Source: Planctomycetia bacterium
GTDB lineage: Bacteria; Planctomycetota; Planctomycetia; Pirellulales; UBA1268
Length of the DNA stretch: 64,000 nucleotides
Direction of reading: 5' to 3'
Assembly (NCBI GenBank): GCA_021414115.1
Contig: JAIOPD010000070.1
Location: forward strand, 40,879 to 104,878
This document shows positions 13,135 through 54,937 of the stretch, piece by piece. The translations under genes were made by a program, and so were the position numbers. The notes beneath the pieces are model-generated. The model did no database searches. It was not told where the DNA came from and saw only the letters and a list, made by a program, of their open reading frames with translations. The stretch's first letter is position 1. Every line of letters starts with the position of its first letter.

Positions 13135-13167
13135 AGCCCTTCCGGGATGCATCGCTTCATGCGCCCG

Positions 13168-13273
13168 GGAAGCCCGGAGCGCAAGCGACGTGTAAACGGG
13201 TAGAGGCCGCGAACGTGCCGCGGAGCGAGTCGGGGTGGAGGATGTATTCCCCGCGCTCGCGCTTGGGGCTTTC
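13168..13273 (+). repeat. Family-1 rod-hairpin intergenic repeat, copy B
   Basis: GGAAGCCCGGAGCGCAAGCGACGTGTAAAC...GTATTCCCCGCGCTCGCGCTTGGGGCTTTC. Lies in the convergent gap. Its last base is the first base of the plsC stop codon complement (CTA at 13273-13275). Confidence 0.85.
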
Positions 13274-13947
13274 TAGGAGAGAGTCGCACGCGCCCGGGCG
13301 TCGAGGTCGCGGATCCGCTGCGTGCAGACCTCGAAGATTTCCCGCTCGCTCATCGTGGCCACCTCCTCCGTGGTGAGGATCTTGCCGAACTCGACCCGGA
13401 TCCGACCCGGCCGCGGAAAGAGCCGTGTTCGCGGCCAGCATTCGAAGGCCCCCACGATCGCCACCGGCACGACGGGCACCCCAGCTCGCTTGGCCATCAG
13501 GCTGAAGCCGCTCTTGAAGTCTCCAAGCCGGCCGTCGAAGGTCCGCGCGCCCTCGGGAAAGATGATGACCGCCGCACCCCGTTTGAGTCGCTCGATCACG
13601 ATCTTCATCGCGGCGATCACCGATGCGTTGCGATCGATCGGCACTGCGTCGAGCGCCGTGATCACCGCGCCGAAGGGCTTGAACGTGTAGAGCGAACTCC
13701 GCGCCAGGCTCGAGAGGCGGCGGTCGGTCGCGAGGCCGAGCAGCAGCGGGTCGAGATGGCTCTGGTGACTGGAGAGCACGATCAGGCCGCCGTGCGCGGG
13801 CAGCGGCTCGGCGAACCGCGAGCGAAAGCCGAACAGCGACACGCCGAGCGTGCGACAGAGCACCCAGAGCACGGCATAGAGGCACTTGCCGAAGAGACTG
13901 TGCCCGCCGCCGGTCGGCGCCGCGTCGTCGGTGGGCCGCGGCTTCAT
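13273..13947 (-). CDS. plsC: 1-acyl-sn-glycerol-3-phosphate acyltransferase
   Basis: 224 aa. HX4D motif (SSHQSHLD) and FPEGARTFDG motif. Confidence 0.85.
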   Translation of the reverse strand: MKPRPTDDAAPTGGGHSLFGKCLYAVLWVLCRTLGVSLFGFRSRFAEPLPAHGGLIVLSSHQSHLDPLLLGLATDRRLSSLARSSLYTFKPFGAVITALDAVPIDRNASVIAAMKIVIERLKRGAAVIIFPEGARTFDGRLGDFKSGFSLMAKRAGVPVVPVAIVGAFECWPRTRLFPRPGRIRVEFGKILTTEEVATMSEREIFEVCTQRIRDLDARARATLS

Positions 13948-24444: not shown

Positions 24445-24486
24445 CGCAAAACGCGGCGATCCATGCGCCGTGGCGACACGTGCTCG

Positions 24487-24591
24487 GGAAGCCCGGAGCG
24501 CGAGCGACGGGTAGATGCGTGGCCTCCGCGAGGGTAGCGCGGAGCCAGGCGGGTGGACGGCAATGTCCCCGGGCTCCCGCCCGGGGCTTCC
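24487..24591 (+). repeat. Family-1 rod-hairpin intergenic repeat, copy C (most diverged)
   Basis: GGAAGCCCGGAGCGCGAGCGACGGGTAGAT...GTCCCCGGGCTCCCGCCCGGGGCTTCC. Lies in the convergent gap between the pil operon end (24444) and the ilvB stop (24630). Confidence 0.8.
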
Positions 24592-24629
24592 TGACGGAGA
24601 GGGGTCCCGGGACGCCGCCAGAACTCCCG

Positions 24630-30694: not shown

Positions 30695-30881
30695 CGCTTG
30701 GTGCATCGCCGCCGGGGCGGCCTCTGCTGCGGCTTTGCCACGCTACACCGCTTGTTAGTGCAACATTCCTTCTGTAATCGCCAGTGCATCTCCGTCCGAG
30801 TCGAGCTCAGCGAGATGAGGGCAGGCACGCACGAGCGGCCCGGGTCAGTGGTCGCAGTGGAGCAGGCATGAGGGGCACCGA

Positions 30882-31319
30882 TCACTTGGCGATGAGCGGG
30901 TTTTTGGTCTTCAATTCGGGAAAGAGAGAGAAATCACGGTCAGCGGTCCAGAGCTCGGCGACACCGTGGTTCAGGCAGATGGCCGCGATCCGTGCATCGT
31001 GAACCTTCCCGCCCACGATCCTGGCCTGCACGCACAAGCGTTCGAGCTTGTCGAGATAGCCGGGACCCTCGTGGAGCAGATGCAAACCCGGGGAGCTCTG
31101 CCAGGCCTTGAGCGATTCGAAGGCGGTCGCCTGCGGGGTGGGCGGGGCGTAGATGCGCGGATGGGTGACGATGGCAAGAAACTCGTGCAGGGAACTCCAG
31201 GCGATGGCCCAGGAGTTTCCGCTGTTGGCGAGATCGACGAGACACGACTTGGCTGCGGCATGCCACTCGCTGTCTTCGCGGTGGGCGTAGACGAGCAGAT
31301 TGGTGTCAATCGCGATCAT
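30882..31319 (-). CDS. vapC: PIN-domain ribonuclease toxin, type II TA system
   Basis: 145 aa. MIAIDTNLLVY (first acidic PIN residue) and WTADRDF (last). ATGA overlap with the upstream antitoxin gene. Confidence 0.9.
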   Translation of the reverse strand: MIAIDTNLLVYAHREDSEWHAAAKSCLVDLANSGNSWAIAWSSLHEFLAIVTHPRIYAPPTPQATAFESLKAWQSSPGLHLLHEGPGYLDKLERLCVQARIVGGKVHDARIAAICLNHGVAELWTADRDFSLFPELKTKNPLIAK

Positions 31320-31573
31320 GACTCCGCGGTTCCATAGATGGCGTCGCGGATCGCGTCCCAGCCTTTGCCGCGGAATTCAGACTGCAGCCCTCTTCCCCGG
31401 AAAGTCACGGGCTTGATCGGCTTTTGCTTCGACGACGCCTTGCGGCCGAGCACCTCACGCAGGCCCTCTTCAATGAGGCTGCGCAACGTGGTCTGGGAAG
31501 CCTCGGCCTCGCGTTTCGCACGGAGGAGAAGGTCGTCAGCAATATCTACGGTTGTCTTCATATGGGTAACCAT
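31316..31573 (-). CDS. vapB: VapB-family antitoxin
   Basis: (MVTH)MKTTVDIADDLLLRAKREAEASQTTLRSLIEEGLREVL. The start is the ATG at 31573 or 31561. The stop overlaps the vapC start. Confidence 0.8.
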   Translation of the reverse strand: MVTHMKTTVDIADDLLLRAKREAEASQTTLRSLIEEGLREVLGRKASSKQKPIKPVTFRGRGLQSEFRGKGWDAIRDAIYGTAES

Positions 31574-31960
31574 ATTGGACGGCTCTCGCTCTGTCAAGCT
31601 GCCCCGCCCCGCTGCTCGCGCCCCGGCTCTCGCCGTTCGAGTTCCTATCCTCGGCTCGCACGACACCTCGCGCACAAGCCTGGGCCAAGCTCGTGGCGCG
31701 GGTGGCCGCCGACCGACTGGGGAGAGCTCGTGCAGACGCACGACCACCGGGCAATCTTTCAGGCGTCACTCGACGAGCTGCCCGTGATCGACGTCCACAG
31801 CCTCTGAACGGTGCCGCACAGGGCCTCGGGCCCCGCCCCATTCTCTGCCCGTCACCAGTCCCACGCTTGCGAATCTGCCGTTGGACGTCCCAGCCTTGTG
31901 TGGCGGATTGCAATTCATCTCCTTTTCAACGCGGCTTCATTTTTGTGGGCCCATTGATGA

Positions 31961-32663
31961 GCGTCATTGCGATCGTTGCGTCGCTACGAGGACAACCTGC
32001 GACATGAGCGATTCTCGCCGGATGGATCAAGCATCCTGATCTACGGTGAGCACCAAGCGACACGCCATGATGTGACCACCGGAAAAGCCGCCGAGAAAGT
32101 CCAGCTAGCTACCCGTAGGCAGGGGTTTCAAGAGTCGATACGCCAAAATCAATGCGCACATTGAGAATGAGGAGCAACATGACGCATCCAGAGCTCTCAT
32201 CTACACCGCCGATTCATCCAACTACCAGGCGATCCTTGACGCGGCGACCGGTAAAGAAATGAAGGCTTTGGGCGACTTCGACACGAATTACACCGCGCAC
32301 TTCTCGCCTGACGCACGGCTTGTCGTGCTGGTGCCGACGTTCGGTCAACACGCCGACGACGCCCGAGACCCTGAGATTCTCGTGATCGACGCCACCACCG
32401 GGGCCGTGGATCGCCGCATGTATTCCGGGCCGTGGGCGTTGCCATCGTTAGACTTCGACGCCGCTGGCAGTCGCATGCTTGTGACCGAGGCAATGAATCT
32501 CAACGTCTGGCGAACATCGCGTGAGTGGCGGCAGTCGGAACAGCAAACCCCCATGCCGAGGAAGGTGCTCGATACGCTGAAGATTCTCGCGGAAGAGCAA
32601 GCGAAGAATGCCGCGGCGTCAGGAGCGGAGCCAGCGAGTGCGCCGAAGAGCACTGGGACTTGA
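31961..32663 (+). pseudogene. beta-propeller (WD40/TolB-like) repeat protein remnant, frameshifted
   Basis: Two frames carry repeat-like strings. One reads ERFSPDGSSILIYGEHQATRHDVTTGKAAEKVQL (frame of 31967). The other reads ALIYTADSSNYQAILDAATGKEMKALGDFDTNYTAHFSPDARLVVLV...ILVIDATTGAV (frame open from 32109). They are separated by a stop at 32106. Local G+C is lower (32/60 at 32101). Confidence 0.3.
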
Positions 32664-32860
32664 GAAGAATGGGAGCACTCGTTGCGCAGGCGGCGAGGGC
32701 ACGGATGGCGATGAGCGGCGGCTGGTTTGGAGCCAGGCGTGGCCATGTCGATGCCGGTGACGCCGTTGCCGAGTCGGCAGGAGAATGCGGGGCGGCCGCT
32801 GACGAGTTCGTCGAGAGCGTCGTGAGTGATCGCCACGCCCGTCTGCGTGCTGCCGCGGCG

Positions 32861-33066
32861 CGAACCGGTACGGAAGCGTTGATCGGCACGCAGGCCGCCG
32901 ATTGCGTCGCGTTGATGACCCTGGCCGTCGACCGTGTGCGGACCGCCCGGCGTGATCTTCGGGATCTCGACTCGTCCTGGATCGCGACGCCATTGTGGCG
33001 CACGGTCATCCGGGGGTTCGCGATCTTCTTGTCCCCCGCGAACCGCGGCCCCGTGAACTCGATGTG
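32861..33066 (-). pseudogene. DUF1080 (3-keto-disaccharide hydrolase-like) C-terminal remnant with a 1-nt frameshift
   Basis: The minus strand reads HIEFTGPRFAGDKKIANPRMTVRHNGVAIQDE, shifts frame at about 32971, then reads VEIPKITPGGPHTVDGQGHQRDAIGGLRADQRFRT. This resembles the ...APRF..DGK...VTV.HNGV.VQD.VE..GPT...IGLQ.HG..V.FRNI end of that family as I recall it. It is preceded by an in-frame stop. Confidence 0.25.
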
Positions 33067-33157
33067 TCATACGGCTCCCACTTGATCCTCGCGCGCCCGG
33101 GCCCAGTGTGCCGCTGATTCCGCGTTGCTGGCGGTTAACGCCTGCGGGCGTGGGTTC

Positions 33158-33252
33158 GGGGCTACCCATCCTCCGTCGCCGGACGTTCGTTGCGGGCATC
33201 CTGCCCTCCACTCACTCGATGCCGGCTCCCGGAGCACGGGTAGCCCCTCGCG
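33158..33252 (-). repeat. Family-2 hairpin repeat, copy 1 (inverted relative to copy 2)
   Basis: The outer arms GGGGCTACCC (33158-33167) and GGGTAGCCCC (33238-33247) are exact reverse complements. The reverse complement of the interior matches 51176-51246. Confidence 0.8.
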
Positions 33253-33389
33253 GTCTCCTCGTTCGCCCAGAGGAACGACGCCGCATACGTGGTTCCCTGC
33301 GAACCACGATCTTGGCGGCATGGCCATCTTTCCGGCTTGCGCGATCCCTCTCGGAGCGCCATGATGCGGCCTCCACCGGAGGAGGTCGC

Positions 33390-33890
33390 ATGGACATCAG
33401 CGAACGGAAGCGAGGGGATCGCCAGAAGCTTGCCCGACTGATCGCCAGGGAATCGAATGCCATGCAGCGAGACCGGCTGCGGAGCGGCCTACTCGTGCTG
33501 CAGGGCCGGCAGACACTCGAAGTGTCTGCCTCTGTGGGCCGCAGTCGGGCCTTCGTGCAGCGTTGGGCATACGCCTATCGCGACGGCGGTATCGAGGCGG
33601 TGCAAGGACGCACGCCACCGGGCCGTCGGCCACGGCTGTCGCCCGAGCAGGAGACTCGCTTCGTGCAGCGGGTGAAGGCCGGCGCGACACCGCGAGACGG
33701 TGTCGCATCGCTGCGAGGGCGGCAGATTGAAGGCATTCTGGATCGCGAGTTCGGCAAGACGTTTTCCCTCAATGGGGTCTACCAGCTGCTCAAGCGGCAT
33801 GGATTCGTTTGCCTCGAGCCCCGGCCGAGGCATCCACGGCAGAACCCGGCTGCAGCGAAGGCCTTCAAGCGGCGCGCCCCCCTTTTGTGA
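33390..33890 (+). CDS. IS630 transposase, N-terminal HTH part (orfA)
   Basis: MDISERKRGDRQKLARLIARESNAMQRDRLRSGLLVLQGRQTLEVSASVGRSRAFVQRWAYAYRDGGIEAVQGR...LSPEQETRFVQRV. GGAGGAGG Shine-Dalgarno 5 nt upstream of the ATG. Confidence 0.85.
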   Translation: MDISERKRGDRQKLARLIARESNAMQRDRLRSGLLVLQGRQTLEVSASVGRSRAFVQRWAYAYRDGGIEAVQGRTPPGRRPRLSPEQETRFVQRVKAGATPRDGVASLRGRQIEGILDREFGKTFSLNGVYQLLKRHGFVCLEPRPRHPRQNPAAAKAFKRRAPLL

Positions 33891-34435
33891 ATCGCGTGCG
33901 GGCCTCACGGCCTCGCACGAAGGTTCGCCTGTGGTTCCAAGACGAGGCGAGATTCGGCCAACAGGGCACGCTGACGGCTGTCTGGGCGATCAAGGGATCG
34001 CGGCCGACCGTCGTGCGTCAGAACGGCCGCAAGTCGATCTGGATATTCGCGGCCGTCGAGCCTGCCACGGGCTGGTCACTGGCCATGCCATTCCGTGATG
34101 TGAACACCGCGACCATGCAGGCGTTCCTTGACGCGGCAGCGAGCAAGCTTCACCGCCGCGAGCATGCCGTCATGATCCTCGACGGCGCAGGCTGGCATAG
34201 TGCACACAAGTTGCGATGGCCCCGGCGCATCACGCCGCTGTTCCTGCCGCCGTACTCACCAGAACTCAATCCAGTCGAACGACTCTGGCACTGGCTTCGC
34301 GAGCACCACTGGAGCAATCGCACTTACGCCGACGAGCAGGCCCTCGTCGAGGAAGCCGTCAGGAGCCACCGGACGCTTCGCAGGACAGACATCCGGTCGA
34401 TCCGCAGAACCCGGTGGATCACGCCTGGGGATTAA
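33809..34435 (+). CDS. IS630 transposase, DDE catalytic part (orfB, -1 frame relative to orfA)
   Basis: LWFQDEARFGQQGTLTAVWAIKGSRP...VMILDGAGWHSAHKL...LFLPPYSPELNPVERLWHWLREH, the DD(35)E signature of IS630/Tc1-mariner. The frame is only reachable from orfA by a -1 shift near 33875-33888. Confidence 0.85.
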   Translation: MPRAPAEASTAEPGCSEGLQAARPPFVNRVRASRPRTKVRLWFQDEARFGQQGTLTAVWAIKGSRPTVVRQNGRKSIWIFAAVEPATGWSLAMPFRDVNTATMQAFLDAAASKLHRREHAVMILDGAGWHSAHKLRWPRRITPLFLPPYSPELNPVERLWHWLREHHWSNRTYADEQALVEEAVRSHRTLRRTDIRSIRRTRWITPGD

Positions 34436-34687
34436 GTGGGATCCGTATCAGAGGCCATCGCCGTAGCTATCCTTCGTGGTCACGCCCTTCATGAGCAGGC
34501 CATCGGCGGTGGTCCGCGGGGCGTCGCGCGCAAGCCGCGGGCCGGCCTATCCGCTACCCCCGATGATGCCCCCTCGAGGCCAAGCGAAACCGACTGCATT
34601 CGCCCGATTATTTGCGGACGCAAACATTCGGGCGTATGGTGTTGAGGGGGCTGTTCTGCGGGCGTCTATCGTGAGGAGATTTCTGTC

Positions 34688-48728: not shown

Positions 48729-48778
48729 CGCGAAGCAGGTTGACTGGCGGGCCCTATTCCCCGCGGAGATGCCTCTCA

Positions 48779-48884
48779 GGAAGCCCAGAGCGCAAGCGAC
48801 GGGTAGACGGGCAGCAACCTCGACGGTAGCGCGGAGCGGATCGACGTGGCGGGCGTATTTCCCGCGCTTGCGCTTGGGGCTTCC
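48779..48884 (+). repeat. Family-1 rod-hairpin intergenic repeat, copy D
   Basis: GGAAGCCCAGAGCGCAAGCGACGGGTAGAC...GTATTTCCCGCGCTTGCGCTTGGGGCTTCC. Lies in the convergent gap between the TPR gene (stop 48728) and the isomerase gene (stop 48919). Confidence 0.85.
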
Positions 48885-48918
48885 CGACGAAGACCCACGG
48901 ACGGCGACGTCGAGCGAT

Positions 48919-49665: not shown

Positions 49666-49855
49666 GTTCCAGGACTCCTTGTCGTGAATCAGCGCCCGGC
49701 AGCCGAGCCGCCTGGCGGGCCGGTTCCGGCCACGAACCCGCAAGGGTAGCGGGAGCCGGCGCAAGATGGCAACTTTTCGTGCGCCGCGCGGCCGACGTCG
49801 CCGTACAATCCCGGGCGGATCGGACACGAGCACCAGAAAACCGGAGTGCACCGGC

Positions 49856-50893
49856 ATGGAAATCGAATCGCGGCAGCTGCCGACACGGGTGATCCTCGAA
49901 CACGCGCGGCCCTGGGGCCCGTGGAGCACGCGGGCGGCGTGGATCATCGCCGGAATCGCGGTGCTCTCGGCAATCGGCAGCGCCGGGGCCTTCTCGCAGT
50001 ACTTCCAGCGGGATTCCCGCGTGGTCGAAAAGTATCACTCACTCTCCAAGACGGCGTCGGCCAAGGTGGCCATCGTGAGCGTCACCGGGGCGATTCTCGG
50101 AGGCGACGGCTTCGTCCGCTCCCAGCTCGACCAGATCGCCGAGGACGAGGGTGTGAAGGCGATCGTGCTCCGCGTCGACTCTCCCGGCGGCACGGTGAGC
50201 GGCAGCGACGAGATCCATCACCGTCTGGCCACGCTCGCCGAGAAGCGAAGCCTGCCGGTCGTGGTCAGCATGGGGGGCATCGCCGCCAGCGGCGGCTACT
50301 ACGTGGCGATGGCCAACCGGGCGGCAGACGACGTGATCTACGCCGAGCCTGCCACGCTCACCGGCTCGATCGGCGTGATCATTCCCCACTTCGACATCTC
50401 GCAGGCCCTGCGGAAGTATGACGTCCGCGATGACTCGATCGCGAGCGGCCCGCTCAAGGAGATGCTCAGCCCCACCAAGGACCGCACCCCCGAGCTCGCG
50501 GAAAAGGAACGGAAGCTCCTCCAGGAACTCGTGGACGACATGTATCGCCGGTTCAAGGAGATCGTGAAGGCGGGCCGGCCCAAGCTCGACGACGCCGCGG
50601 TCGACAAGGTCGCGACCGGGCAGATCTTCACCGCCCGGCAGGCCCTCGACGCGGGCCTCGTGGACCGAATTGGTTTTCTCGAAGACGCGATCGGCCGCGC
50701 CGTGGAGCTGGCCGGGCTCACCGCGGAGACCGCGCGGGCCGTGAAGTATTCCAAGCCCAAGGGACTCCTCGACGAGGTGCTCGGGGGCGTGGCGCCCGGG
50801 AGCCGCGTCGACCTCGCCGCGATCGCCGAACTCACCACGCCTCGCGGCTGGTATCTCTGCAGCTGGCTCCCCGCCCTCGTGCGGAGCGAGTGA
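49856..50893 (+). CDS. sppA: signal peptide peptidase SppA, 36K type
   Basis: Starts at the ATG at 49856. Contains VKAIVLRVDSPGGTVSGSDEI and SMGGIAASGGYYVAMA (S49 family). Confidence 0.88.
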   Translation: MEIESRQLPTRVILEHARPWGPWSTRAAWIIAGIAVLSAIGSAGAFSQYFQRDSRVVEKYHSLSKTASAKVAIVSVTGAILGGDGFVRSQLDQIAEDEGVKAIVLRVDSPGGTVSGSDEIHHRLATLAEKRSLPVVVSMGGIAASGGYYVAMANRAADDVIYAEPATLTGSIGVIIPHFDISQALRKYDVRDDSIASGPLKEMLSPTKDRTPELAEKERKLLQELVDDMYRRFKEIVKAGRPKLDDAAVDKVATGQIFTARQALDAGLVDRIGFLEDAIGRAVELAGLTAETARAVKYSKPKGLLDEVLGGVAPGSRVDLAAIAELTTPRGWYLCSWLPALVRSE

Positions 50894-51110
50894 CTCGCAC
50901 GTGGGTCAGCTGCCACGAGACACGCGCACTTCCGCCGGCTGCGGGACGGCATGAGGTTCCTCGCGGGAGTATTTCGCATGACGCGAGACGAGGGTTTGAA
51001 CTCCAGCGAGCGAAATCCTCCACGCTCGTCACGCTCACGCCGATCCCTCCGCCTCGTCCAGCGAGGGGCCTTCTGCGGCTTCCTCGGAACGAACGCAGAG
51101 GTCGAACTCA

Positions 51111-51250
51111 GCGAGGGCCTGCCCATACCCCGTCGCCGGCGTATGACGCCAAGCGCAGGCAGGATGCCGAAGCGCAGGCGGCATCCGAGTGAGTGGAGCC
51201 CAGGATGGGCGCAACGAACGTCCGGCGACGGGGCATGGGCAGCCCCTCGC
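51111..51250 (+). repeat. Family-2 hairpin repeat, copy 2 (long form)
   Basis: 27-nt arms GAGGGCCTGCCCATACCCCGTCGCCGG (51113-51139) and CCGGCGACGGGGCATGGGCAGCCCCTC (51222-51248) pair with 2 mismatches. The interior shares about 65 nt with the reverse complement of 33158-33225. Confidence 0.8.
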
Positions 51251-51319
51251 CCCGCGAACGTCCGGGACAACCGCGGCCCACCTCAACCAGCGTGTCACGT
51301 GACGCGTCGAACCTGCCGA

Positions 51320-52609
51320 TCACGCCAGCACGGCCGTGATGGGCTTGCCGTCGTGGCCGATTTTGAAAGGGCGGCCGTTGGGAGCGACGAACTCCTTCTC
51401 CCATGGCAGCCCGCAGGCGGCGGCGATCGTGGCGTTGAAGTCGGCCACGCTGACGGCGTCGCGATCGGGGGAGTGGCCGCGGGCATCGGATGCGCCGTAC
51501 ACCACGCCCGGCTTCACACCGGCGCCGGCCAGCACGCAGGAGAAGACCGCGGGATGATGGTCACGACCGGCATTCTCGTTGATCTTCGGCGACCGGCCAA
51601 ACTCGGTGGCCAGGACGACGAGCGTGGATCGGAGCAGGCCCCGGGCCTCGAGATCCCCGAGCAATGACGCCATGGCGGTGTCGAGTTCGCCGACCTTCTC
51701 GGGCAGCTCCTCCCAGAGATCGCGGTGCATGTCCCAGCCATTCATCTCGACCTCCACGTACCGCACGCCCGACTCGACGAGCCGTCGGGCGAGCAGGCAG
51801 CCCTGCCCGAGCCGGGAGCGGCCATACCGCTCGCGGGTCGATTCGTCCTCCCGCGAGATGTCGAAGGCGGCGAGGTCGCCGCTGCCCATCAGCCGGACCG
51901 CGTCGGCATACATGCGGTCATAGGCCTCGATCTGCCGGCCCGCGTACTGCTGCTTGAAGTCGTGGTCGATTCGGTCAGCGAGCGCGAGCCGGCGCTCGAA
52001 GTTGGCCTGCGACAGATAGCCGGGTCGCGTGATGTTTTCCAGCCCCCGCTCGGGGTCGGCGATCGGCACCGGCGTGAAGGCCGGATCGAGGAAACCGCAG
52101 CCCGGATGCTCGTTGCCGTTGCCGACGAGCACGTAGCCGGGGAGATCGCGACTCCGCTTCCCCATCACGTGCACCGCCCACGATCCGAGCGCTGGATGGC
52201 GGATGCTGTTGATCTGCGGGTAGCTGGTTCGCATGAGATAGGTGCCCTGCTCGTGGGCGCCGGTCTCGGTGGTCAGCGAACGGATCACGGCCAGCCGGTC
52301 GGCGAGTCCGGCGAGCTGCGGCAGATGCTCCCCGAACTGGAGGCCCGGAATCGACGTGGCGATCGCCTTCGTCTCCCCCTGCTCCTCGCGGCCGGGCTTG
52401 GGGTCGAAGGTGTCGATGTGGCTCATCGCGCCCCGCATCATCAGGGCGATCACGTTGATGCCGGACGGCGGGAGGGCCGGCTGATCGGCCACGAGGGGCT
52501 TGCCGGCGACCCCGTCGAGAAGCGTGAGCCCGAAGGCGGCACCGGCGGCGCGGCCGAGAAAGGACCGCCGCACGAGCGGGTCGTCGTGGAGCACGAGGCG
52601 GGACGTCAT
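51320..52609 (-). CDS. DUF1501 domain protein (sulfatase-like fold) with TAT signal
   Basis: Starts at the ATG at 52609 (MTSRLVLHDDPLVRRSFLGRAAGAAFGL, twin-arginine motif). Also MSHIDTFDPKP and GRDHH. Confidence 0.88.
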   Translation of the reverse strand: MTSRLVLHDDPLVRRSFLGRAAGAAFGLTLLDGVAGKPLVADQPALPPSGINVIALMMRGAMSHIDTFDPKPGREEQGETKAIATSIPGLQFGEHLPQLAGLADRLAVIRSLTTETGAHEQGTYLMRTSYPQINSIRHPALGSWAVHVMGKRSRDLPGYVLVGNGNEHPGCGFLDPAFTPVPIADPERGLENITRPGYLSQANFERRLALADRIDHDFKQQYAGRQIEAYDRMYADAVRLMGSGDLAAFDISREDESTRERYGRSRLGQGCLLARRLVESGVRYVEVEMNGWDMHRDLWEELPEKVGELDTAMASLLGDLEARGLLRSTLVVLATEFGRSPKINENAGRDHHPAVFSCVLAGAGVKPGVVYGASDARGHSPDRDAVSVADFNATIAAACGLPWEKEFVAPNGRPFKIGHDGKPITAVLA

Positions 52610-52653
52610 GGCGTGGTCTCCCAAAAACCGCGGTGGATTGGCACCGTCGGTTC

Positions 52654-54630
52654 CTACTGGATGAAGATGAACTCGCGGGTGTTGAGCAGCGCCCAGATCA
52701 GGTTGCCGCAGCCCGTGGCGGGATCGGCGGCGGAGGCGATCTCGTCGCGGGCCTCGCGGCGATCGTCGGCCGCGGGCTCGTGGGAGAGCACCGACAGAAA
52801 GATCACGTCGACGGTCTCTTCGGGATCGTGGCTCATCACGGTCTCGTAGATCACGGAGCCCTTCTCGAGCATGGCATGCGTGATCGGCCCGTTGAACATC
52901 GCGAGGATCTGCGGGATCGTGGGCACGGTGCGGCCCCCCTCGATCGTCTCGCGGTCGCTCTGGCCGAACTGCCGGAGGAAGTGGCCGAGCGGCAGCGGCG
53001 TGGGCATCTCGCTGGCCTTCATGAGCCACTGGCCACGGTAGCCGCAGTTCTGCTGGAGCATGCGCTGGTAGCGGCCAGGGCCGTAGCGGTCGAAGAAGGC
53101 GTCGAACTGCCGCTCCACGTCGTCGAGCGACGCCTGCCGCAGATCGACGCTCGCGACCTCGGCGATCTCGGCGGCGGCGGGCCGCTGCACGCTCCAGGGA
53201 TTGCGGGCGACGAGCGTCACGATCGAATCCCAGAGCTGCTCGGCCGTCATCCGCCGCAGGGCCGGGCCCGTGAAGCGAAAGGGCTCGGCCGCGGTGGGAT
53301 CGTGGATCACCGCCCGCCGCTGGTAGGCAGAGGTCGAGACCACGGCGCGGACAAACTCACGGAGATCGAAGTCGAGTCGCAGGACGAGGTCGGTGAGGTG
53401 CTCGAGCAACTCGGGATCGCTCGGCGGATTCTCCTTGCGGAAGTCGTCGTCCGGCTCGACGAGCCCCACGCCCATCACCTTCTTCCACATCCGGTTGGCG
53501 ATCGTGCGGGCGAACTGCCGGTTCGTCCGCGCGACCATCCAGCTTGCAAACTGCTCCCGGCCGTCGGCGTTTTTCACACTCGCCGGCACCGACCCCCAGA
53601 GGAGTTTCTTCGTGACGGGCTCCAGCGGCTTCGCGTCGTCGTATTGATAGTCGTGCGGCAGCCGGAGCGGACGGTCCTGAAAGCTGACGCCCGTCGCATT
53701 GGCCTGGATGAACTGAATCAACTGCGCCGCCTTGCGACCCCTGGATTCCTTGGCCTCCTTGACGAGCGCCCGGACGGCCGGCGGCGGGACGGGCTTGGCT
53801 TCCTTGCCGGGCTTGCCAGGCCGCATGGCGGCGCCCAGCCGCATTTTCGTGCCCGCCGTGAAGGCAGCCAGTTCGTAGAACTCGTGCTGCGTCCAGCGGT
53901 CGAAGGGATGGTCATGGCACTGGGCGCAGCCGATCTGCGTGCCGAGCAGCACGCGCACGGTGTTGTCCACATAGGGCAGCGGCATGCCGTCATCGCGGAG
54001 CTGGAAGCCGACGGCGGGGTTTTCCCAGAGCCGGCCGTCGGCGGTGAGCATCTCGCGGACCCAGTCGTCATAGCGCTTGTTCGTGCGGATCGAGTCCTTC
54101 ACATAGGCCAGATACGGCTCGAAGATCAGGTTTCGCTGCGGCCGCTCGGTGAGCCGGAGGATGTCGGCCCAGAAGTTGTAGAAGTGACTGACATAGTCGG
54201 GGCTCGCCAGCAGCCGCTCGATGAGAGCATCGCGTTTGTCGGACGAGTCGTTCTGGAGAAAGGCGACGGTCTCGTCATAGGTCGGAATCCGTCCGGCCAA
54301 CTCGAGATGGATGCGGCGGACGAACTGGGCGTCGTCGAGCGAAGGCGACGGCACGACGCCGTACTCCTGCCAGCGGGTCGCGAGAATCGCGTCGATCGCG
54401 GCGGCCTGTGCACGGACCTTGTCGCGACGGCGGGCATCGACCGGTGCGACGTCCATCGCAGGTCGGTTCGGGGCCGCCGTCACCGCCTTCGGCAGGCCGC
54501 CCTTGCGGTCCGCTGAGGTGTCGGGCTTCGCACGGTTGGCCGCCAGGGAGACGACCGCCCCCGCCACGATCAGGCAGGCGGCGAGCGCCGACGCGACACG
54601 CTGCGAAATCGGCACCACCTTCAACCGCAT
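52654..54630 (-). CDS. DUF1549/DUF1553 domain protein (PSD1-type)
   Basis: Starts at the ATG at 54630 (MRLKVVPISQRVASALAACLIVAGAVV). Contains FVRRIHLELAGRIPTYDE and GCAQCHDHPFDRWTQHEFYELAAF. It is the usual partner of DUF1501 in Planctomycetota. Confidence 0.88.
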   Translation of the reverse strand: MRLKVVPISQRVASALAACLIVAGAVVSLAANRAKPDTSADRKGGLPKAVTAAPNRPAMDVAPVDARRRDKVRAQAAAIDAILATRWQEYGVVPSPSLDDAQFVRRIHLELAGRIPTYDETVAFLQNDSSDKRDALIERLLASPDYVSHFYNFWADILRLTERPQRNLIFEPYLAYVKDSIRTNKRYDDWVREMLTADGRLWENPAVGFQLRDDGMPLPYVDNTVRVLLGTQIGCAQCHDHPFDRWTQHEFYELAAFTAGTKMRLGAAMRPGKPGKEAKPVPPPAVRALVKEAKESRGRKAAQLIQFIQANATGVSFQDRPLRLPHDYQYDDAKPLEPVTKKLLWGSVPASVKNADGREQFASWMVARTNRQFARTIANRMWKKVMGVGLVEPDDDFRKENPPSDPELLEHLTDLVLRLDFDLREFVRAVVSTSAYQRRAVIHDPTAAEPFRFTGPALRRMTAEQLWDSIVTLVARNPWSVQRPAAAEIAEVASVDLRQASLDDVERQFDAFFDRYGPGRYQRMLQQNCGYRGQWLMKASEMPTPLPLGHFLRQFGQSDRETIEGGRTVPTIPQILAMFNGPITHAMLEKGSVIYETVMSHDPEETVDVIFLSVLSHEPAADDRREARDEIASAADPATGCGNLIWALLNTREFIFIQ

Positions 54631-54675
54631 GAGGTCACCTCGATCGCATCCGGGATACGTGACATCGGGCGCCGG

Positions 54676-54782
54676 GGAAGCCCGGAGCGCGAGCGACGGG
54701 TAAACGGGTCGCCGTCCGGAGCGGTGCCGCGGAGCGGGTTGGGGTGGCGGACGTATACCCCGCGCTCGCGCTTGGGGCTTCC
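54676..54782 (+). repeat. Family-1 rod-hairpin intergenic repeat, copy E
   Basis: GGAAGCCCGGAGCGCGAGCGACGGGTAAAC...GTATACCCCGCGCTCGCGCTTGGGGCTTCC. Lies between two same-strand (minus) genes. Confidence 0.85.
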
Positions 54783-54937
54783 TGAACAATGCATGCCGCC
54801 CTCGGCGAACCAAACCGGTTTTGTCTTTCTCCCGGCCGCATCCGCCACAAGGGTCGCGAAAAACAGGAACCTATGAACATCACGGATGCACCTTGACCTT
54901 CGCCTGCGGCTCGAAGCCTGCCTGTTTCGACACCGAT

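Follow-up and report, generated by a model that had tools for sequence, protein, structure and literature searches.

A 64,000-nt stretch of a contig from a Planctomycetia bacterium of the order Pirellulales (JAIOPD010000070.1, positions 40,879 to 104,878; hereafter the window) contains two genes that converge on a spacer, between their ends at 50893 and 51320, in which a long imperfect palindrome is found. The upstream neighbour, on the plus strand, is sppA (49766–50893), a signal peptide peptidase of family S49 (Pfam PF01343) whose product is 100% identical to a protein named SppA; the downstream neighbour, on the minus strand, is a DUF1501 gene (open reading frame limits 51320–53029; PF07394, E = 4e-110) with orthologues of 427–433 amino acids. 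The window is GC-rich (64–73%) and by Pfam contains genes typical of Planctomycetes, including DUF1501, PSCyt2/PSD1 and SppA. A first-pass annotation of the sequence paired the palindrome (copy 2) with a second, inverted sequence (copy 1) as a hairpin repeat, called Family 2, whose structure it held to be maintained through compensatory changes. The analysis presented here shows firmly that both sequences are true members of a new, structured and strand-specific repeat family of the Pirellulales, in a phylum whose genomic repeats have been little described.

Copy 2 is a full-length element (51111–51252, plus strand) that a covariance model of the family built from 38 copies (model R1) recognizes over model positions 1–143 with 150.6 bits and E = 4e-25. 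Its closing helix is formed by a 5' arm (51111–51139) and a 3' arm (51222–51250, CCGGCGACGGGGCATGGGCAGCCCCTCGC) of 29 nt each, 93% complementary, with pairs that co-vary across the family; the two mismatches counted by the first-pass annotation are present, while the arm length of 27 nt that it gave is two short. Many family members are followed by an additional 3' arm in tandem, and copy 2 retains a remnant of such a second arm, CGAACGTCCGGG, at 51255–51266. Enclosed by the arms are hairpin 1 (51158–51168, GGC-AGGAT-GCC), the purine-rich linker CGAGTGAGTGGAG (51186–51198), hairpin 2 (51198–51210, GCCC-AGGAT-GGGC) and a junction 20-mer, GCAACGAACGTCCGGCGACG (51211–51230), which is identical in both window copies and served as our search probe. 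Each hairpin contains the motif CAGGATG. The sequence AAGCGCAGGC, reported as an internal duplication, is indeed present twice (51151–51160 and 51170–51179) because a self-complementary GCGC/GCGC helix brackets hairpin 1, but the duplication is peculiar to copy 2, the family consensus at the second site being AAGCGCCGGC. The 5' flank GAACGAACGCAGAGGTCGAACTCA (51087–51110) is common to other copies and forms a lineage-specific extension of the element: CGAACGCAGGGTCGGAACTCA is shared between the flank of copy 2 and one other locus (L021), and GAACTCA precedes most copies in P_PIRE17 and S1Ck117, the two metagenome-assembled genomes (MAGs) richest in the family. Farther left, in the 218 nt of other sequence that separate copy 2 from sppA, CCAGCGAGGGGCC at 51058–51072 resembles the start of a Family-2 5' arm (CAGCGAGGGGCTGCCC) and may be the remnant of an older copy, one that neither the model nor nhmmer calls.

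Copy 1 (33152–33251, minus strand) is degenerate, lacks hairpin 1 and scores 83.8 bits with model R1. The block that it shares with copy 2 (33158–33218 on the minus strand against 51186–51246 on the plus strand) is 61 nt long and matches at 89% as an inverted pair, as had been described, and blastn of copy 2 against the window returns 71 nt at 87% (E = 4e-19); neither nhmmer nor blastn finds a third copy in the window. The differences that first drew attention to the pair are also real. Hairpin 2, the subject of the original observation, reads GGGC-AGGAT-GCCC in copy 1 (33194–33206, minus strand) and GCCC-AGGAT-GGGC in copy 2, two G:C pairs being flipped, and the outer stem reads CTACCC/GGGTAG in copy 1 and CTGCCC/GGGCAG in copy 2, an A-T pair against a G-C pair. 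Both copies fold much better than shuffled sequences, as RNA and as DNA, copy 2 with z-scores of -5.8 and -6.5 as RNA and of -8.1 and -8.5 as DNA, and copy 1 with -4.1 as RNA.

The first-pass annotation would have been refuted had the two sequences stood alone, with their compensatory changes reproduced in no homologue; a wider search instead finds many homologues in which the same flips recur. Scanning one genome per species with the exact 20-mer gave 56 loci. Two of them, one from Cupriavidus and one from an unclassified bin, match by chance within coding sequence; the 54 genuine loci come from at least 13 MAGs assigned to Pirellulales, Planctomycetia or Planctomycetota (24 in P_PIRE17, 19 in S1Ck117 and one to three in each of about 11 other bins). 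Model R1 finds 60 forward-strand copies in 55 loci (the window and the fetched loci), including diverged copies without the probe 20-mer, and three further copies in loci fetched later. The 60 copies are all intergenic by crude open reading frame calls and have paired arms of 25–29 nt; the consensus from oriented extraction is about 142 nt (GCGAGGGGCTGCCCGTGCCCCGGAGCCGGCGTATGACGCCAAGCGCAGGCAGGATGCCGAAGCGCCGGCGGCATCCGAGTGAGTGAAGCCCAGGATGGGCGCAACGAACGTCCGGCGACGGGGCATGGGCAGCCCCGAGCC), and a genome carries dozens of copies. About 25 of the 20-mer matches are no more than 200 nt from a contig end, which is to be expected of repeats at which assemblies break. Family 2 breaks MAG assemblies, and Pirellulales contigs that have been mis-binned may be recognizable by it: Family-2 contigs also occur in bins labelled as other taxa (L015, Bacteroidia; L047, Chitinophagaceae; L018, Candidatus Kuenenia), which points to mis-binning or horizontal transfer. 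A gathering-threshold scan of the window with Rfam 15 returned only a tRNA-Leu, permissive Rfam scans of both copies gave noise (E > 0.4) and no match to a Csr/Rsm family, plasmid and phage collections contained no Family-2 match, and in the searched literature on planctomycete repeats and miniature inverted-repeat transposable elements, or MITEs, we found no description of the family.

RNAalifold and the covariance model agree on a Y-shaped consensus fold. About 22 pairs, in two segments, make up the closing helix, which encloses a first inner domain, in which CGCC/GGCG and then GC/GC lead to hairpin 1 (GGC-AGGAT-GCC), followed by the conserved linker CGAGTGAGTGRAG, which has near-invariant columns and no pairing partner, hairpin 2 and the conserved junction GCAACGAACGT. 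In the alignment of 60 copies, 96.6% of cells form pairs, compared with 90.7% in shuffles and 29–52% in slid registers, and 18 of 39 pairs show double-sided change, compared with 8.6 in shuffles and 5–8 in slid registers; none of 500 shuffles matches the observed value on any measure. An alignment fitted with a covariance model leans toward the modelled structure, but a MAFFT alignment gives the same picture. The 60 homologues greatly strengthen the proposal that the structure is maintained through compensatory changes. The closing helix is the most variable part, with double-sided changes in nine of its 15 outer pairs, while loops, linker and junction are near-invariant, so that the interior is better conserved than the helix that closes it. 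This combination of variable arms and invariant interior is the opposite of what is seen in a transposase-bound terminal repeat, and it suggests that shape and loops, and not the sequence of the terminal repeats, are what is recognized. A small open reading frame starting from the AGGATG of hairpin 2 was considered and rejected; it has no conserved stop or frame, and stem covariation accounts for the conservation.

The stem flips, although real, did not arise between the two window copies, as had been supposed, but are old alternative alleles found across the family. The second pair of hairpin 2 is C-G in 44 copies and G-C in 14, the third is C-G in 49 and G-C in eight, and the middle pair of hairpin 1 is G-C in 26, C-G in 23 and A-U in three. 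An intermediate form of hairpin 2, GGCC/GGCC, is found in L018, L034, L047 and L052, and a single MAG, P_PIRE17, contains every one of the four combinations that the states of the two hairpins allow. Selection for pairing, probably together with recombination or gene conversion between copies, would maintain and shuffle these alleles.

Across the 39 pairs there are 87 G.U (G.T) cells and only 17 A.C cells, an excess which indicates that one defined strand folds, plus in the case of copy 2 and minus in that of copy 1. Model R1 likewise scores 80–163 bits on the forward strand and 17–35 bits on the reverse. Mutation bias fails to explain the excess, because the flanks are C-rich on the folding strand and yet the changes tolerated within the element on that strand are mostly C-to-T. 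Family 2 offers a clean natural experiment in structure conservation: its copies run to dozens per genome, covariation is abundant, wobble pairing is specific to one strand, and sites are filled in some relatives and empty in others.

The filled and empty sites are best seen at the sppA locus itself, which we compared in relatives of decreasing SppA identity together with a nearby convergent spacer between a TPR gene and an AP-endonuclease gene. In the window the sppA/DUF1501 spacer holds Family 2 and 218 nt of other sequence, and the TPR/AP-endonuclease spacer holds a copy of a different repeat, Family 1 (48776–48885). The relative at 94% SppA identity (L066) has a 69-nt sppA/DUF1501 spacer with no repeat and neither family at the second site; at 92% (L067) the spacer is 15 nt with no repeat and the second site holds Family 1; at 89% (L068) it is 0 nt, the stop codons abutting, and the second site holds Family 2. 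At 87% (L069) both sites hold Family 2, the copy beside sppA belonging to a diverged subfamily and bearing an extra 3' arm, and both are again filled by Family 2 in P_PIRE17 (L009; 84–85% nucleotide identity), there with a 35-nt companion repeat beside sppA. At 85% (L070) there is no DUF1501 gene at the site and neither family in the TPR/AP-endonuclease spacer, and at 79% (L071) a different gene replaces DUF1501. Gain/loss polymorphism of the family is thereby firmly shown. The copies beside sppA in the window, L009 and L069 belong to different subfamilies; copy 2 shares only 87% identity with the L009 copy in the same position, against 92–94% with copies elsewhere in P_PIRE17, a pattern suggestive of either independent insertion or gene conversion. 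The flanking genes of the window and L009 are 84–85% identical to each other, and the remainder of the spacer cannot be aligned.

Many copies are rearranged, and truncated, nested and tandemly scrambled forms are common. A full extra 3' arm follows the element in tandem in L001, L012, L025, L039, L044, L046 and L054. In several copies (L012:621–814, L031:2321–2489, L037:4531–4698, L035:4304–4466, L014:1–124 and L034:6635–6804) a 33-nt mini-hairpin, CGGGCACCGATCCGC-NNNN-GCGGATTGGTCGAC, is inserted at two different sites within the element, each just 5' of GCAG or GGAG, and this looks like a separate small repeat with a target preference of its own. Most copies in P_PIRE17 and S1Ck117 (L001, L005, L009, L013, L025 and others) are bracketed by a 35-nt unit, GCCCGCGGCCTCACGGCCGGTCGGCTTGTAC, resembling the repetitive extragenic palindromes (REPs) of other bacteria, and farther upstream lies another hairpin unit, CCCAACGCCGTGAGGCGTGGG, the whole forming mosaics like the bacterial interspersed mosaic elements (BIMEs). 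The 35-nt companion unit is absent from the window even at three mismatches.

Copy 1 occupies a special position. It lies in the 5' leader of an IS630-family insertion sequence (IS) at 33072–34445 on the plus strand, with TA on both sides (33070–33071 and 34446–34447) and terminal inverted repeats at about 33072–33095 and 34422–34445, as 27-nt arms that are 81% complementary. The transposase is encoded by orfA (33390–33890, plus strand; Pfam HTH_23/29/32/33), to which copy 1 is antisense, and orfB (33809–34435, plus strand; DDE_3), which overlaps orfA in another frame. Copy 1 is a truncated, decayed passenger of this leader and does not count as a genomic copy in its own right. In L015 the same IS, 95% identical, holds a full-length Family-2 element, showing that copy 1 lost hairpin 1 by a 41-nt deletion between AGCCGGC direct repeats. 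Comparison with loci L057, L059 and L062–L064 shows that from terminal repeat to ATG the leader measures about 310 nt in the window, which is unusually long, and about 100 nt in relatives at 61–77% amino-acid identity, the extra 215 nt or so consisting of the Family-2 hairpin with about 62 and 75 nt of flanking sequence, while a closer relative at 89% identity (L062) has the same long leader with the hairpin missing at the same point, TTCGGGG^CT^TCTCGC. Because the relatives at 77% and 61% orfA identity have short leaders without the element, the IS acquired it secondarily.

The presence of copy 1 inside an IS raises the question of whether Family 2 originated from that IS as a classical MITE and is moved by it. 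A genuine internally deleted derivative of the IS does exist: at L033:693–1014, about 325 bp retain both IS ends and half of the hairpin, the right end (166 nt) being joined straight to the left end (159 nt) in a true MITE-like arrangement. The arms of Family 2 (GCGAGGGGCTGCCC...), however, have no similarity to the terminal repeats of the IS (TACGGCTCCCACTTGATCC), they co-vary instead of presenting a fixed binding sequence, genomic copies are not surrounded by a TA duplication, most host loci have no IS630 nearby, and the IS, whose relatives at 61–77% identity lack the element, acquired it secondarily. Such an origin is therefore largely refuted, and we consider it very improbable. Two further arrangements involve IS ends. 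In L016 the element is joined to the left IS end only, a sign of recombination at the repeat, and in L022 (about 1530–1560) a Family-2 copy is followed downstream by GCAAGGCTCATGTGGAGGCCGTCTCA, which is similar to the terminal repeat of IS630, CGAGGATCAAGTGGGAGCCGTAT, and may be a solo IS end.

Since the window copies are mutually inverted, it had also been proposed that they might bound an invertible segment of 18 kb, and the L016 arrangement does indicate that recombination at family members occurs. But the block that they share is only 61 nt at 89%, with a longest exact run of 22 nt, no invertase gene is seen at either repeat, one of the copies is an IS passenger, and neither stands out within a dispersed family that numbers dozens of copies in a genome; we regard an invertible segment as unsupported and as the least credible of the explanations weighed here.

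The orientation of the copies follows the composition of the surrounding DNA and not the strand of neighbouring genes. The bias is strong: when the 400 nt next to the element on either side are left out, GC skew along the element strand is negative in the flanks of 35 of 41 loci (binomial p = 5e-6, mean -0.023), among them 11 of the 12 loci of minor lineages, and third-position skew split by gene orientation shows a strand effect independent of the coding strand. The window conforms, with a plus-strand skew of -0.008 and copy 2 on the plus strand, only the IS-borne copy 1 being reversed, and at the two orthologous sites the six Family-2 copies all point the same way. Genes next to the element, as crudely called from third-position GC content, show no strand bias relative to the element (25 loci against 18; 103 kb of coding bases on the same strand and 88 kb on the opposite), and upstream neighbours are co-oriented in 12 cases and opposed in 11. 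We read this pattern as suggesting that element orientation is tied to the replication strand. In bacteria the leading strand is usually the G-rich one, and under that polarity the folding strand would be the lagging-strand sequence. The skew bias points toward single-strand, replication-linked biology, and may reflect either a route of mobilization along the replication strand or a chromosomal role.

The second possibility deserves consideration in its own right: Family 2 could be a host DNA site tied to the replication strand, polar and either protein-bound or structure-forming, that serves chromosome organization, replication or repair and is not selfish. The orientation bias is what would be expected of such a site, as is an interior conserved near the level of coding DNA (87% against 84–85% for the flanking genes, window versus L009). 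Its sites are readily empty in close relatives, however, truncated, nested and scrambled copies abound, an IS has captured the element, and no partner protein is known, and for these reasons we think a host site unlikely.

What preference there is relative to genes is limited to gene 3' ends, most often convergent intergenic regions; a downstream neighbour within 300 nt converges on the element in 21 of 28 cases. Together with the great stability of the hairpin, this could indicate a transcript 3'-end element, a terminator or mRNA stabilizer like the REP and TRIT hairpins found downstream of genes. Yet there is no U-tract, a terminator scan is empty, a simple terminator needs neither two conserved GGA hairpins nor a conserved linker, relatives manage with spacers of 0–15 nt at the same site, and strand specificity and skew bias would both go unexplained. 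We give this reading little credence, about as little as a host site, and any 3'-end effect may be a by-product of the element and not what it is for.

Taken together, the evidence makes it reasonably likely that Family 2 is a non-autonomous, mobile or recently mobile element of the Pirellulales, similar in kind to REPs, MITEs and enterobacterial repetitive intergenic consensus (ERIC) sequences, that acts in single-stranded form. Its multiple intergenic copies, presence and absence at identical sites, nested insertions, tandem partial duplications and capture in the IS630 leader are all traits of a mobile sequence. The functional unit would comprise the closing helix of 25–30 bp, two A-GGA-U-capped hairpins and the conserved purine-rich linker and junction, folded from one strand. 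What is recognized would be its shape together with the conserved loops and linker, in single-stranded nucleic acid from that strand and most likely in single-stranded DNA exposed at replication. The recognizing factor would be supplied in trans, the obvious model for it being an HUH/Y1-type enzyme of the REP-RAYT or IS200/IS605 kind, and mobilization of the element, present or past, would be linked to the replication strand.

Several observations weigh against this picture. Copies have no target-site duplication or conserved target, and neither TA nor any other direct repeat flanks them. The only clean comparison of a filled with an empty site, the IS leader of the window against that of L062, shows a 2-nt CT ambiguity and could equally be a deletion, and the filled and empty sites in general could represent repeated loss rather than gain. 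Template switching at replication can flip the pairs of a palindrome in one step, without selection, and since copies in one MAG are related by descent, the counts of pairs and of G.U and A.C cells are not counts of independent events. A crude tblastn search of about 0.45 Mb of fragmentary MAG DNA (the window and loci), with IS608 and IS200 TnpA queries, found no Y1 transposase; one match, in L029, was spurious, covering 12 residues at the C-terminus of an unrelated 288-aa open reading frame. The genes between paired copies, judged by eye from end sequences, look like housekeeping genes (transketolase, miaA and a phosphatase family). Finally, if the usual polarity holds, the folding strand would lie on the leading-strand template, opposite to the IS608 paradigm. 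Membership in the RAYT-REP class or in the IS-derived MITE class is not established.

Comparison with known systems shows partial likeness to several. Like REPs, REP doublets (REPINs) and BIMEs, which are associated with RAYT transposases, Family 2 consists of short multi-copy extragenic palindromes with inverted arms that form a long hairpin, enters mosaics with other short repeats (the GCCCGCGGCCTCACGGCCGGTCGGCTTGTAC units of P_PIRE17 and S1Ck117) and has a strand-specific, single-stranded biology. A CGTC lies at the inner foot of the 3' arm, in the invariant AACGTCCGG, although this region was fixed by the search probe; CGTC-tagged REPs have been described, some of them in Planctomycetes (PMC3733652). 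Unlike REPs and REPINs, Family 2 has arms split by an interior of about 82 nt that is better conserved than the arms and holds two hairpins of its own, it lacks the GT[AG]G tag, no RAYT gene flanked by copies is present in the window and loci, and at the usual skew polarity its folding strand is on the unexpected replication strand. IS200/IS605 ends share with it two similar small hairpins on the same strand, strand-specific recognition of single strands, the absence of target duplication and an orientation tied to the replication strand (PMC6006769). Those elements, in contrast, have no long closing helix or terminal inverted repeat, while Family 2 has no associated TnpA or TnpB gene and an apparently opposite strand polarity.

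ERIC sequences (also called IRUs) and the Correia/NEMIS MITEs are imperfect intergenic palindromes of about 100–150 bp, with size variants caused by insertions at fixed internal points, presence/absence differences between related genomes and potential RNA hairpins in read-through transcripts. The 33-nt mini-hairpin inserted at two sites of Family 2 is a parallel to their size variants. Family 2 differs in having no detected target duplication, in terminal repeats that co-vary instead of keeping their sequence, in having no known sequence similarity to those families and in the phylum of its hosts.

The fourth likeness concerns the two inner hairpins, whose CAGGATG motifs present GGA at the tip of loops about 40 nt apart. 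Two C-N(1-2)-GGA-N-G loops are kept in 54 of the 60 copies and two exact CAGGATG motifs in 41 of 60, the GGA loop of hairpin 1 being retained almost throughout. The consensus of the RNA-binding regulator CsrA is matched even better by the tetraloop variants CAUGGAUG, CAAGGAUG and CAGGGAUG. The Escherichia coli RNA CsrB contains about 18 CAGGA(U/A/C)G repeats in hairpin loops, the CsrA consensus obtained by in vitro selection (SELEX) is RUACARGGAUGU with GGA in a short hairpin loop, and two sites 10–63 nt apart can be bridged by one CsrA dimer (PMC7652899). CsrA is reported to be widespread among Planctomycetota (PMC13443453), and one of the host MAGs has a homologue of 95 aa with a Gly/Asn-rich tail (L027:1883–2170, minus strand; PF02599, 62 bits against a cutoff of 27). 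There csrA is followed by an MpsC-family gene (the pair spanning L027:1416–2170), and the operon ends 23 nt from a Family-2 copy (L027:1252–1393) that lies antisense to it.

The main alternative, which is compatible with a mobile repeat, is accordingly that the element acts mainly as a functional RNA module, its two CsrA-type hairpins bridged by one dimer, the copies titrating CsrA or bringing neighbouring transcripts under its control. In favour of such a role are the identity of CAGGAUG in both hairpins to the CsrB repeat and their fit, and that of the variant loops, to the SELEX consensus, the retention of GGA loops while stems flip, a loop spacing within the bridging range, the excess of G.U over A.C, which fits RNA, and the prevalence of CsrA in the phylum, including a host with a copy just past its csrA-mpsC operon. 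Scans for a sigma-70 promoter and an intrinsic terminator at copy 2 found none, however, no promoter or terminator is conserved in the family, and the flanks are not conserved between lineages, diverging within about 12 nt. Orientation is unrelated to neighbouring transcription (four copies sense and nine antisense in tandem gene contexts) and tracks GC skew, so that at the usual polarity a GGA-sense transcript would run head-on to replication; the copy beside csrA is antisense to its operon, and a perfect helix of 25–30 bp would be a substrate for RNase III. Relative to CsrB, RsmY and RsmZ, with which it shares repeated CAGGAUG, GGA exposed in short hairpin loops (PMC7652899), a spacing that a dimer could bridge and a host with CsrA, Family 2 has two sites per unit and dozens of dispersed copies in either orientation to genes, is no single-copy gene equipped with a promoter and terminator, is enclosed in a long perfect helix and has no Rfam match.

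The lead is notable but circumstantial, and we rate a predominantly RNA function as doubtful, though less so than a host site or a 3'-end element. The same low probability attaches to a combined form, in which a mobile element would have spread the twin CAGGAUG hairpins and the repeat would constitute a genome-dispersed CsrA-binding module, its transcripts jointly titrating or recruiting CsrA. We know of no CsrA-antagonist RNA in Planctomycetota. Exact CsrB-type hairpins in a CsrA-rich phylum make Family 2 a candidate CsrA ligand, and a confirmed role would, to our knowledge, make it the first system of CsrA decoys or targets described from Planctomycetota, as well as the first one borne by a repeat family.

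Two other features of the window may be recorded. Directly upstream of the IS630 element, at about 30740–33070, GC content is lower (0.64–0.66), the codon-position GC signal is unclear and the open reading frames tested have no Pfam match; this may be degraded or foreign DNA beside the IS. Family 1, finally, is a second, unrelated hairpin repeat of about 110 nt, with five copies in the window, all on the plus strand, at 2384–2493, 13165–13274, 24484–24593, 54674–54783 and, in the TPR/AP-endonuclease convergent spacer, 48776–48885.

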